Source of the DNA: a bacterium
GTDB lineage: Bacteria > UBA8248
Direction of reading: 5' to 3'
Assembly: GCA_965213625.1 (NCBI GenBank)
Contig: CBDBZU010000004.1
Coordinates: forward strand, 3,712,001 to 3,776,000
Length of the DNA stretch: 64,000 nucleotides
In this document: positions 4,566 through 64,000 of the stretch, piece after piece
How the letters are laid out: every line of letters begins with the position of its first letter
Position numbering within the stretch: position 1 is the stretch's first letter
Notes under the pieces: model-generated
Told to the model about the DNA's origin: nothing
The model's database searches: none
What the model saw: only the letters and a program-made list of their open reading frames with translations
Translations under genes and position numbers: made by a program

Positions 4566-4994
4566 TTAGCTTGAAAGGTTTGTTTTTTCGGTCAGGGCGT
4601 ATCGAGTGAGTCTGTTCAGTAACTCTTTTGACGGGCTTCCGCTACTGTACTTGCCCCTAGCCCATGAATCGGTGCTAAGCCAAGAGGTTGTCTTGCCTAC
4701 AACTTTGACCAATTCATCGTGAGGCACGAGGTACCAGATTTCATTCACCCTAAAAGCTATATAAAGTTGTTTGCCTTGGTATTTCTTGTCGATAGTGAGG
4801 CGTCCTTTGAGCTGGACTTTTAAGGTTTGTTGTCCATCCTTGTGGTACGCAAGAAAATCAGCGCCTTGCCAGTCGTCGTGGAGCTTGATGCAGTTGAAGC
4901 CGTAGTCCGCCAATAGCCCTGCAAGTTTTTGAAAGTTATAAACTTCCTTCTGCTTTGAATTTAGAGCCTCATAAAGGATATGTTTCAGTTTCAT
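4566..4994 (-). CDS. Hypothetical protein, probable PD-(D/E)XK nuclease fold, AT-rich
   Basis: GADF...VQLK catalytic-like motif; GAAGGAG RBS before ATG 4994. Confidence 0.6.
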   Translation of the reverse strand: MKLKHILYEALNSKQKEVYNFQKLAGLLADYGFNCIKLHDDWQGADFLAYHKDGQQTLKVQLKGRLTIDKKYQGKQLYIAFRVNEIWYLVPHDELVKVVGKTTSWLSTDSWARGKYSSGSPSKELLNRLTRYALTEKTNLSS

Positions 4995-5104
4995 CCAATT
5001 AGACTCCTTCCTTCGAGCAATTCTTACGATCCATTCCACTTCGCGTGTAATAAGAACGCCAGTCTGTGCGTGGTTCTGACACCCGACACTTGAAACGACA
5101 CCCC

Positions 5105-6445
5105 TCACCGCTCATCGACGAGGCGGCGGGCCTTCACGTCGCGCATCGGGTCGTGGATAACGCCCGGCGCCACGAATTCGAGGACCGGCCGTATCATCAC
5201 CGCTCCCCGCACCCTGTCCGGCACGGAAGCGCCGAGCCGCTCGCGCTCTGAATCCTCGGCTTCCAGGCGGATGATCATCTCGTCCATCGAATCCGAATCC
5301 TCAGGCGCAGACTTGCGGATCCTCACCTGAAACTCGCGAATCGACCGTTCTTTCGAGAGGAGATCGAAAACGATATCCGGGTTCATGAGCATCCCGCGCA
5401 CCTTTAGCAGATCGCCCGTCCGCCTCGGCAGGCGCACGATGCGCTCGCCCACACGCCCGCAGTGCGGACAGGGCTCCCACCTGAGCGCGATGAGGTCCCC
5501 GATGAGATAGCGCAGAAACACCGTGCCCCGGCGGTGTAGGTGCGTGAGGGCTATCACGCCCTCTTCTCCTTCCGGCACGTGTTCGCCGGATTCGGGGTCC
5601 ACTACTTCGAGCAGGTAGAGTTCGGGCACGACGTTGTGCGGCATCGCATCGTTCGCGCACTGCACGAGGCCGCCCTGCATCTCCGTCGCCGCGTAGCGCA
5701 CCCGCACCTGCGGGTCGCTCGCCCCGAACCAGCGCAGATGGTCCATATACTCCTCGCGCAGGGCGTCGCTCACGGCCTCGCCCGTGGTGAGCACCATGCG
5801 CGCGCGGGGGAGCTTGACGCCGCGCTCGCGCGCTCTCCTCAGGAAGCGGCGGACGAAACTCGGCACCCCCCAGATAATCGTAGCGCCCGAATCGGCCACC
5901 ACGTCGACGGCCTCATCGAGCGAGCGCCTTACGGGGTATTCTGGATGCGGGCTGCCCGTCAGCGCGCTCACCACGGGCAGACCCATGATTTCCGCCGAAC
6001 GCACGCAGCAGAGAAACCCGCCCAGCGGCATGGGCGATAGCGGGTAGAGGTTCGCGATGACGTCTCCTGCCTGCAGACCTTCCGCCTCGTTGCAAACCCT
6101 CGCCTGGAGCATAATGTGGTACTGGTCGTGCGTGGTGTTGAAAAAAGGAGAAGGCCGCCCGCTCGTGGTGCCCGTGGTGTAGGCCACGTTCCACATGGTG
6201 CGCTCCTCGAAGGGAAGCTCGGGCAGCCAGGCGGGGTCGAGGCTGAAATCCTCGGGCGCCGCCATGAAATCCTCTTTTTTCGTGAGGGGGATTTTCTGGA
6301 GGTCGTCGAGTTCCTTGACCGCCTCAGGGATGAGGTTCGCCTCCGCGAAACGACGCTTGTAGAACGGGTGCGCCCGACCGCACAGGGCGACCATTCTCCT
6401 CAAGCGTTTTCTCCTCAACTCATGCAGCGCGTCTTGCTCGTTCAT
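5105..6445 (-). CDS. Phenylacetate-CoA ligase family AMP-dependent ligase
   Basis: YTTGTTSGRP, YAATE, LRYLIGD, RTGDLLKVRG. Confidence 0.85.
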   Translation of the reverse strand: MNEQDALHELRRKRLRRMVALCGRAHPFYKRRFAEANLIPEAVKELDDLQKIPLTKKEDFMAAPEDFSLDPAWLPELPFEERTMWNVAYTTGTTSGRPSPFFNTTHDQYHIMLQARVCNEAEGLQAGDVIANLYPLSPMPLGGFLCCVRSAEIMGLPVVSALTGSPHPEYPVRRSLDEAVDVVADSGATIIWGVPSFVRRFLRRARERGVKLPRARMVLTTGEAVSDALREEYMDHLRWFGASDPQVRVRYAATEMQGGLVQCANDAMPHNVVPELYLLEVVDPESGEHVPEGEEGVIALTHLHRRGTVFLRYLIGDLIALRWEPCPHCGRVGERIVRLPRRTGDLLKVRGMLMNPDIVFDLLSKERSIREFQVRIRKSAPEDSDSMDEMIIRLEAEDSERERLGASVPDRVRGAVMIRPVLEFVAPGVIHDPMRDVKARRLVDER

Positions 6446-62258: not shown

Positions 62259-62570
62259 ATGACATTTGTCATCGGGGAAAAATGCCTGGGCGAGCGCTAT
62301 GCGACGTGCGTGAGCGTGTGTCCCGTGGATTGCATGCACCCAGGCGAGTACAAGGGGGAACCCTTCCTGATCATCGACCCCGAGGAATGCATCGACTGCG
62401 GCGTCTGCCAGCCGGAATGTCCGATTGACGCCATTCTGGAGAGCGAAGACGACGATCCCGTATGGGCGGAAATCAACGCGGAACTCACCGATGAATTCAA
62501 GAACAACGAGCCGGTCGAGCCGCGCCCGGCGAATGACCCGCCGCGAAGAGCAGACAACACGCTACGCTAA
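62259..62570 (+). CDS. fdxA: 7Fe-type ferredoxin
   Basis: MTFVIGEKC...CVSVCPVDC...IDPEECIDCGVCQPECP; AGGAGG RBS. Confidence 0.9.
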   Translation: MTFVIGEKCLGERYATCVSVCPVDCMHPGEYKGEPFLIIDPEECIDCGVCQPECPIDAILESEDDDPVWAEINAELTDEFKNNEPVEPRPANDPPRRADNTLR

Positions 62571-62588: not shown

Positions 62589-62622
62589 AAACACCGCGGT
62601 CATCGGGCCGCGGTGTTTTTTT
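62589..62622 (+). terminator. Rho-independent terminator after the ferredoxin gene
   Basis: AAACACCGCGGTC / GGCCGCGGTGTTT stem followed by a T-run. Confidence 0.85.
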
Positions 62623-62684
62623 ATTGCGCCAAGCGCATTTTCATACACCTCACCCTCCGGCAACGGGGACACCCTGAGGAAGCC

Positions 62685-63665
62685 ATGGTCTTGAGTCCAC
62701 CCGCAACAGACGGCCCGCTCATCGCCGTCGCCGGAACGCGCTTCGGCCCCCCCACGGTCGAGGAGGAGATACTCTCGCCACTGGGTTCCCGCCTGCGCCT
62801 GGGCATGGGATCGGACCCAGAATCCCTGGTCGAACTCTGCGCGGAGGCGGAAGGCGTCATCATCGGCTCGATTCCTACCTTCACGGCCGAGGTCATCGCG
62901 CAACTAAAACGCTGCAAAATTCTCGCGCGCGGCGGCGTGGGTGTGGACAACGTCGACATGGAAGCCGCAACAGCCAAAGGAATTCACGTCACTTACGTAC
63001 CGGATTACTGCGTCGATGAGGTATCGGACCACGCCATGGCGCTCATCCTCTATTTCGCCAGAAAACTGGAGCAGGGGATCGCGGAAGTCAAAAAAGGCGG
63101 TTGGGGAATCGCTGCTTTGAGACCCATCGCACCGCTTCGGGGCGCGACGCTGGGCGTTGTGGGAATCGGGAGGATCGGCGCGACACTGGCCAGAAAAGCG
63201 CGCGCATTCGGGATGCGGATCATCGCGCACGACCCCTTCGCGCCCGAATCCGTTTTCGAGGAATCAGAGGCCGAGAACACAGCGCTTTCGCAGATATGGG
63301 AGGAGTCGGACTACATCTCCCTTCACGCGCCCTTGACGCCTGAGACACGCGGCCTGGTGAACGTCCAAGCGCTCGATCGCATGAAGACGGACGCCGTATT
63401 GATCAACGTGGCGCGAGGCGAACTCGTGGACGAGAAGGCGCTGGCCAATGCGCTCAAGAAAAACGCCATCCGGGGCGCGGGCCTGGATGTACTCGAAGAA
63501 GAACCCCCGCGTCCGAATCATCCGCTGCTCGGGCTTCCCAACTGCCGTGTCACGCCGCACAGCGCGTGGTACAGCACGGCCGCCCTGGAAGACATGAGGC
63601 GAAAGGTGGCGACTGACGTATTGCGCGTCCTTCGAGGCGAGGAGCCGCGCTATCCCGCGAAATAA
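62685..63665 (+). CDS. D-isomer-specific 2-hydroxyacid dehydrogenase (CtBP-like)
   Basis: GVGVDNVD, VPDYCVDEVSDH, GIGRIG, INVARG, LDV..EEP, TPHSAW. Confidence 0.92.
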   Translation: MVLSPPATDGPLIAVAGTRFGPPTVEEEILSPLGSRLRLGMGSDPESLVELCAEAEGVIIGSIPTFTAEVIAQLKRCKILARGGVGVDNVDMEAATAKGIHVTYVPDYCVDEVSDHAMALILYFARKLEQGIAEVKKGGWGIAALRPIAPLRGATLGVVGIGRIGATLARKARAFGMRIIAHDPFAPESVFEESEAENTALSQIWEESDYISLHAPLTPETRGLVNVQALDRMKTDAVLINVARGELVDEKALANALKKNAIRGAGLDVLEEEPPRPNHPLLGLPNCRVTPHSAWYSTAALEDMRRKVATDVLRVLRGEEPRYPAK

Positions 63666-63693: not shown

Positions 63694-64000
63694 TTATTTT
63701 TCTATCGGAAAACCGACGACGCTCCCCCACTCCGTCCATGAGCCGTCGTAAATCTTCACGTCTGCATAGCCCAGCATATACCGCATGGCGAACCAGACCA
63801 GACTGGCCCGGTGGCTGAGGCGTCAGTAGAGGACAAGTTCAATCTCATCATCGCTTGCTGCGCCCGCGCCGCTAAGAATCCGCGCAAGCTCATCCGTGCT
63901 CTTGTAGGTGTCGTCCTCGTTCAACAGCTCCCGGAAGAACAGGTGTACGGCCCCTGGTATGCGTCCGGCGCGCTCGGCCCCGTGGTCGAAGCCCGGCGGA
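63694..64000 (-). CDS. 3' part of a rhodanese/SseA-type sulfurtransferase; in-frame TGA at the catalytic Cys (probable selenocysteine)
   Basis: Manual translation ...AERAGRIPGAVH...ELVLY*RLSHRAS...YDGSWTEWG...PIEK-TAA; runs off the window edge. Confidence 0.85.
63793..63811 (-). promoter_or_regulatory. Candidate bacterial SECIS element
   Basis: Hairpin CCGGGCC-AGUCU-GGUCUGG starting 11 nt after the UGA. Confidence 0.6.

Follow-up and report, generated by a model that had tools for sequence, protein, structure and literature searches.

The 3' end of the window analysed here (the whole stretch of 64,000 nucleotides, corresponding to G000:C4:3712001-3776000) raises a simple question: what becomes of a TGA triplet that interrupts a rhodanese gene at the very codon of its catalytic cysteine? 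We conclude that the gene very probably encodes a 282-residue, two-domain rhodanese-type sulfurtransferase in which the catalytic codon 240, UGA, is decoded as selenocysteine (Sec). The observations behind this answer are an in-frame TGA conserved at the catalytic column, selection on the frame downstream of it and a complete Sec machinery in the genome. Translation with TGA read as U delimits the following features:

Window 63694..64000, minus strand: 3' 307 nt of the predicted rhodanese selenoprotein gene, residues 181-282 and the TAA
G000:C4:3775694-3776542, same strand: full coding sequence, 282 codons plus stop, its first 542 nt lying past the window end
Window 63823..63825, minus strand: predicted Sec codon UGA (residue U240) in the motif LYURLSHRAS, at the catalytic-Cys position of the C-terminal rhodanese domain
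Window 63694..63783, minus strand: C-terminal tail past the candidate SECIS region, residues 254-282 including YDGSWTEWG, plus the TAA; pN/pS 0.085

Over window positions 63694-63999 the minus strand reads ...RIPGAVH...ELVLY-TGA-RLSHRAS...YDGSWTEWGSVVGFPIEK-TAA, with exactly 42 sense codons between the TGA and the TAA at 63694-63696. Translation thus confirmed the frame proposed in a first-pass annotation of the sequence, which had read RIPGAVH...VLY-TGA-RLSHRAS...YDGSWTEWG with the TGA at 63823-63825 and 42 open codons behind it. Followed past the window, the frame reaches an ATG at C4:3776542, giving a 282-codon gene with a single internal TGA at codon 240. The same start methionine is found in all orthologues, which have MT(Q/P)(T/A)D-like N-termini.

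Existing gene calls treat the TGA as the end of the protein. The mechanical listing of open reading frames breaks the gene in two there, and in a collection of 5.8 billion proteins all 21 clusters at 74% identity or above, among the 120 matches listed, are 237-239 aa long and end at the TGA; the expectation that ordinary gene callers truncate this gene was therefore borne out. The other 99 matches listed share 58-66% identity at a query coverage of at least 91%. Taken at face value, these calls would make TGA240 a true stop, and the locus either a pseudogene or the source of a 239-residue protein without the catalytic loop, with the downstream frame open by chance. TGA is moreover the commonest stop in the genome, ending 1,433 of 3,044 long stop-to-stop frames. 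Against this, the truncated product would lack its sole catalytic residue, and the evolution of the downstream codons, described below, leaves termination at this codon very unlikely. Because the listed close-homologue clusters stop at the UGA, and the gene is mis-annotated in all 21 of them among those 120 matches, the sulfur and selenium metabolism of this selenoprotein-rich marine lineage is under-described.

The protein itself is a clear family member. Two stretches match Pfam Rhodanese (PF00581; E 4e-30), and both domains were matched in the genome scan too; with its tandem domains and its catalytic residue in the loop of the C-terminal domain, the protein belongs to the two-domain rhodaneses (PF00581 twice, COG2897 type). 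The best solved match is Thermus thermophilus rhodanese (PDB 1UAR; E 2.4e-60), collinear over residues 8-282, and the mycobacterial structures 3AAX, 3HWI and 3HZU match at E 1e-54 to 3e-50. In the alignments U240 falls on the catalytic Cys, which stands in YCRIAERS in 1UAR and in YCRIGERS in 3AAX and 3HWI. These Cys-type two-domain TSTs (1UAR and the mycobacterial CysA/SseA-type proteins) likewise have two rhodanese domains, the same active-site position and the C-terminal motif YDGSWTEW, but the solved TSTs carry Cys in C-R-I-[AG]-E-R-S where the gene studied here has Sec predicted in U-R-L-S-H-R-A. The corresponding C-R-[LM]-S-H-R-A loop is common to Cys homologues of the gene in MAGs labelled Nitrospinota or Chloroflexota.

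The kinship with SseA/3-mercaptopyruvate sulfurtransferases suggested in the first-pass annotation stood only in part: the Y-C-R loop, the YDGSW.EW signature and the position of the UGA on the catalytic Cys are as described, but the protein lies closer to TST-type rhodaneses such as 1UAR. E. coli SseA (1URH) is a weak match (E 8.6e-22, as against 2.4e-60 for 1UAR), and the SseA equivalog model for 3-mercaptopyruvate sulfurtransferase (NF008557) scores 95.4 bits against a curated cut-off of 250. The scores were also below the cut-offs for NF041203 (LYCAU, 'form 3' rhodanese-related (seleno)protein; 36.4 bits against 115) and for ExtH, NF040901 (48.1 bits against 200).

The TGA is a property of the genus and not of a single assembly. 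In the 22 other genomes of the genus, 20 have a full-length orthologue (76-91% identity) with exactly one TGA each; one has the gene split across two contigs, with the TGA in the 3' piece, and one, which is 79% complete, gave no match. Together with the window's own gene, all 21 full-length genus genes place the TGA in the same column, within L-Y-U-R-L-S-H-R-A-S-L-V-W-F-A. Outside the genus the column is TGC or TGT in all 24 homologous genes read, within Y-C-R-[LMI]-[SG]-[HE]-R. In a sample of 51 genomes from the phylum, a homologue (E <=1e-40) was found in 24 of the 28 non-genus genomes, none with TGA; TAG occurs in one partial second copy, which lies at the edge of a contig. The alternation of Cys and TGA predicted for this column is thus observed, with TGA throughout the genus and Cys outside it, and the gene forms the Cys/Sec pair expected of a bacterial selenoprotein.

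These comparisons also bear on whether the TGA could be a sequencing or assembly error for TGC or TGT. The assembly is of metagenome type with 5.16% contamination, and the two sequencing runs with identical sequence may be the assembly's own source, so that their agreement could be circular. The same TGA is nevertheless present in 20 other full-length orthologues from separate assemblies and in the one split copy, and clade-specific codon changes surround it. With 21 independently assembled genomes in agreement, a misread TGC or TGT, which would have undone the proposal, is ruled out as the true reading, and an error of any kind is scarcely credible.

In a maximum-likelihood tree of 45 rows, the 21 Sec rows group together as a clade (support 100/99) that branches from within the Cys rows; these come from MAGs labelled Nitrospinota and Chloroflexota, plus one Phaeobacter. 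The outgroup was the genome's own paralogue, and 18 named-record loci (L048-L065) were left out as duplicates of genus genomes. Because the Sec clade is nested among Cys rows and the TGA is genus-wide, the data fit one change from Cys to Sec, at the root of the genus, in a lineage labelled Nitrospinota.

If TGA240 ended translation, the 42 codons behind it would be free to decay. Pooled over all pairs of the 21 genes, the tail (codons 254-282) has pS 0.468, pN 0.040 and pN/pS 0.085, while the upstream 239 codons have pS 0.418, pN 0.102 and pN/pS 0.245. Although their proteins diverge by as much as 24%, the 21 genes all retain the frame, the length and the YDGSWTEWG signature. The decay that the first-pass annotation had named as grounds for abandoning its reading is the opposite of what was found, namely purifying selection on the frame past the UGA. 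Because pN/pS is 0.085 at a normal pS, the tail appears from these substitution patterns to be translated and constrained, unlike a dead 3' remnant.

The genome has the means to translate it. The proposal had been made to depend on selA, selB, selC and selD, and all four genes are present: selA, selB and selD score 564, 388 and 333 bits, each above its curated cut-off, and the single tRNA with a UCA anticodon that aragorn reports is a tRNA-SeC. The selD gene itself carries a TGA, at its GGUGSK site, with a hairpin GGGUCC-GGA-GGACCU beginning 11 nt past the UGA:

C4:1518879: predicted Sec TGA of selD, GGUGSK site

TGA is not reassigned genome-wide; besides being the commonest stop, it is the terminator of the rhodanese gene at codon 283 in 9 of the 21 orthologues. 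In the part of a 2026 database paper considered here, MAGs labelled Nitrospinota/Nitrospinaceae (GTDB UBA8248) rank among the most selenoprotein-rich bacteria.

Several other genes in the genome have an in-frame TGA, most with a downstream hairpin: a second two-domain Sec-rhodanese candidate, discussed below, seven AhpC/TSA matches and one DsrE match. One AhpC/TSA match has two TGAs 9 nt apart (H-W-U-P-Y-U).

G000:C4 positions 2355100, 679151, 3308239, 678494/678485, 3658497, 4038209 and 2636658: in-frame TGAs of AhpC/TSA-family matches, in UxxC, UPP[FY]R or similar motifs
G000:C4:1242208: in-frame TGA of a DsrE-family match (N-I-U-T-A-C)

As a separate observation on this contig, the first ~5 kb of C4 appear duplicated just after selB at a constant offset of 184,757 nt, as seen from identical scores for the selB C-terminus and an AhpC/TSA-like stretch (C4:223-408 and 184980-185165; 4961-5197 and 189718-189954). 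This duplicated stretch could be a real repeat or an assembly artefact.

A codon that is read through need not be read as Sec. UGA240 might be translated mostly as Cys, by way of the Sec pathway when selenium is scarce, or as Trp by a near-cognate tRNA; with Cys the protein would again be an ordinary rhodanese, like every out-of-genus homologue read. The only tRNA with a UCA anticodon is, however, tRNA-SeC, the Sec machinery is complete, and the column is one where Sec/Cys exchange is a known pattern. The RNA immediately downstream of the codon also speaks against non-Sec read-through: it holds a hairpin with SECIS geometry and frozen synonymous sites, as set out next. On this evidence predominant decoding as another amino acid is improbable, and decoding as Sec remains our reading.

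The features of the region downstream of UGA240 are:

Window 63792..63812, minus strand: candidate bacterial SECIS hairpin ACCGGGCCA-GUC-UGGUCUGGU, 9-bp stem with two G-U pairs, loop at 63801-63803
Window 63784..63813, minus strand: 30-nt stretch invariant in the 21 Sec-form orthologues, spanning the hairpin and 8 nt 3' of it

The hairpin reported in the first-pass annotation, CCGGGCCAGUCUGGUCUGG, is present at 63793-63811 with 8 bp, 11 nt past the UGA; an extra A-U pair lengthens its stem to 9 bp, so that it starts 10 nt past the UGA. The published bSECIS model (PMC13188914, Fig. 2 legend) calls for an apical loop of 3-9 nt with a G among its first two positions, a stem of 4-16 bp, 16-37 nt from UGA to loop and an MFE of -7.5 kcal/mol or lower. 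Here the loop is GUC (3 nt), with G at position 1 followed by U, the stem has 9 bp, the distance from UGA to loop is 19 nt and the hairpin folds at -12.0 kcal/mol; the element described as SECIS-like thus falls within all four published criteria. As a measure of chance, a hairpin of at least 9 bp lies 8-14 nt behind 0.68% of the 123,114 TGA triplets in the genome, and behind 0.32% if one of the first two loop positions must also be G.

The resemblance to the E. coli fdhF SECIS that had been pointed out was borne out on the fdhF sequence (NC_000913.3), which reads UGA, 11 nt, then GGUUGCA-GGUC-UGCACC. Both hairpins lie inside the open reading frame, with a spacer of 11 nt in fdhF and 10-11 nt here, share the apex CA-G(G)UC-UG and hold a loop G-U at +23/+24 from the U of UGA. 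The loop has 3 nt (GUC) here but 4 nt (GGUC) in fdhF, and the stem here is a continuous 9 bp with two G-U pairs and no bulged U in the fold. The Rfam scan of the gene and its upstream region returned no SECIS family, only sub-threshold chance matches to ctRNA_pGA1, the Na+ riboswitch and sR44, and the 71-nt context folds no better than shuffles (z = -1.03).

Taken by itself, the stem is less telling than it appears, since much of it is already present in Cys-form homologues. The peptide H-R-A-S/T-L-V/A-W in GC-rich codons is self-complementary, and Cys-form homologues pair 4-8 of the 9 stem positions in the same register, some with a loop G; some of them fold as strongly or more so (L043, -12.2 kcal/mol; L077, -14.1 kcal/mol). 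In two of these loci, L076 and L077 (MAGs labelled Dehalococcoidia or Chloroflexota), the UGC codon is followed, at the same distance, by a hairpin of 8 bp and a CGC loop; with L076 folding at -10.8 kcal/mol, both would pass the bSECIS criteria despite the UGC.

The discriminating evidence is selection at synonymous sites. The hairpin sequence is identical in all 21 Sec-form genes, and no invariant run of the codon alignment is longer than the 30 nt that contain it (the runner-up has 14 nt; overall, 49.5% of columns do not vary). The Sec clade has pS 0.000 over codons +4 to +12, as against 0.47-0.50 in its flanks. Three Cys clades with similar flank divergence have pS 0.53, 0.49 and 0.74 over the same codons, with no dip, and a fourth Cys group (the three nearest genes, two of them identical in the segment), which is too small to read, has pS 0.14-0.20 at the hairpin and 0.14-0.23 across the 3' part. 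In columns 243-257, a single codon is used in 8 of the 10 degenerate columns with an invariant residue, compared with 19 of 124 elsewhere (Fisher p = 3.6e-5, for a region picked post hoc and related rows). The loop Ser is AGU in every Sec gene; at that position Cys genes have Thr (ACN) or Ser (UCN). The element does not vary among the 21 Sec genes and so shows no compensatory changes; support for the structure comes from the frozen synonymous sites and not from covariation. These codon patterns show a constraint on the hairpin at the RNA level.

On this basis we propose how the gene is translated. At UGA240 the hairpin 10-11 nt downstream in the mRNA would recruit SelB with GTP and Sec-tRNA(Sec), its 9-bp stem and GUC loop setting the G and U at +23 and +24. 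Sec would be inserted in place of termination and 42 more codons translated to the TAA. In the resulting enzyme a selenolate would replace the thiolate in the active-site loop U-R-L-S-H-R, and sulfane sulfur (or selenium) would be accepted as an enzyme-Se-S(-) intermediate and handed to an acceptor. The initial description of the gene product as a Sec-containing sulfur/selenium transferase accordingly draws support from the TGA column, the machinery, the selection and the hairpin; Sec insertion, binding by SelB, the activity and substrates of the enzyme and any catalytic benefit we infer. The metatranscriptome contigs found cover L001 2374-2629 only, short of the TGA, and a contig from a sponge metagenome, belonging to a relative, runs across the site, with none of the differences listed falling between 2283 and 2335.

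This is a known kind of selenoprotein and no new class; predictions of Sec in place of the catalytic Cys of rhodaneses go back to 2005. As the first-pass annotation had noted, Sec-rhodaneses have been reported before: 'Rhodanese-related sulfurtransferase, COG2897' was listed as a Sec family with 3 sequences in the Sargasso Sea in 2005 (PMC1088965), and the Sec COG2897 sulfurtransferase appeared again in Olavius symbionts in 2007 (PMC1976440) and in GOS in 2008 (PMC2398784). The excerpt of the 2026 review PMC13188914 considered here distinguishes five Sec-rhodanese forms, among them the COG2897 type as 'Rhodanese-like form 4, UxxG' and 'Rhodanese-like form 1' as UxxS, with a Geobacter exemplar and credited to Zhang and Gladyshev 2005; the published COG2897 members are all predictions from the alternation of Cys and TGA, and according to the same excerpt none of them has been characterised biochemically. 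The words 'rhodanese' and 'sulfurtransferase' do not occur in the text and supplement of the BSepDB paper.

The gene studied here shares with the published COG2897 Sec-rhodaneses the COG, the Pfam fold, Sec in place of the catalytic Cys and a SECIS-like hairpin downstream in the open reading frame. It differs in the active-site loop and the hairpin: the Sargasso supplement (PMC1088965) shows Y-U-Q-A-G-V-R-A-A, a UxxG form, with a hairpin of the GUGC-GGC-GCAC type, whereas this gene has Y-U-R-L-S-H-R-A-S (UxxS). With U-R-L-S it falls outside the UxxG motif of 'form 4', though Sec column and fold are the same. The GOS COG2897 sequence (PMC2398784) has yet another active-site loop, and a comparison by eye and by motif search found none of the strings URLSH, YURL, SHRAS and SHRAT in the Sargasso and GOS supplements. 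The URLSHRA-type Sec form is therefore missing from the Sargasso and GOS lists, form 1 (UxxS) being known here from its table row.

The genome does contain a gene of the published kind, outside the window:

G000:C4:3027923-3028759 (L086:1424-2260), plus strand: predicted second two-domain Sec-rhodanese (YUQTGYRAA), TGA at C4:3028625

This paralogue resembles the Sargasso form in its UxxG motif and in hairpin type (ACCGUGC-GGC-GCACGGU), and shares 30% identity with the gene under study. Its TGA is shared, without exception, by the 22 other genomes of the genus, and also by genera g2, g17 and g18 (73-78% identity); homologues at 68% identity or below are without it. Because this TGA is spread over four genera, the UxxG conversion would be the older of the two. 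Judging by these distributions, the lineage has probably seen two conversions, that of the UxxG paralogue and a separate, genus-level Cys-to-Sec conversion that gave the URLSHRA gene, and a genome with the published form of Sec-rhodanese thus gains a second, independently converted one.

How might the hairpin have come about? In Cys-form genes of other phyla too, GC-rich codons yield a hairpin at a suitable distance. Only five substitutions separate the Sec form from the nearest Cys genes in the segment that runs from the Cys codon to the end of the hairpin: UGC to UGA, CGC to CGG, ACC to AGU (at two positions) and CUC to CUG. The active-site peptide C-R-L-S-H-R-A-S/T-L-V/A-W may be encoded by a latent SECIS, an idea we advance tentatively and rate somewhat below an even chance. 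If it holds, UGC to UGA and a few mostly synonymous changes could create a selenoprotein in a Sec-decoding host, the repeated conversion of rhodaneses to Sec would be explained, and the genus would offer a dated, step-by-step example of SECIS birth. The conversion is recent and limited to a single genus, its sister genes retain Cys and the nucleotide changes can be traced, which makes it a clean natural experiment on the origin of a SECIS inside a coding sequence. It also makes an enzymatic question testable, namely the effect of a selenolate nucleophile on sulfane-sulfur or selenium transfer, by comparing U240 with U240C.

The surroundings of the gene give no functional clue, with no sulfur or selenium theme among the neighbouring genes. 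Downstream, two genes lie on the opposite strand:

Window 62259-62570, plus strand: 4Fe-4S ferredoxin gene
Window 62613-63665, plus strand: D-2-hydroxyacid dehydrogenase gene, converging on the rhodanese gene with 28 nt between the stop codons

A two-component system is also nearby, and an amidase gene lies 516 nt upstream of the rhodanese gene on the same strand. No promoter-like site was found at the locus, and its two terminator-like sites are at the level of shuffled sequence. Between the amidase gene and the rhodanese start, we observed three direct repeats of ~34-49 nt with 74-84% identity, spaced 49 and 55 nt apart:

L085:10733-10870 (G000:C4:3776732-3776869), just past the window end: direct repeats in the 516-nt gap
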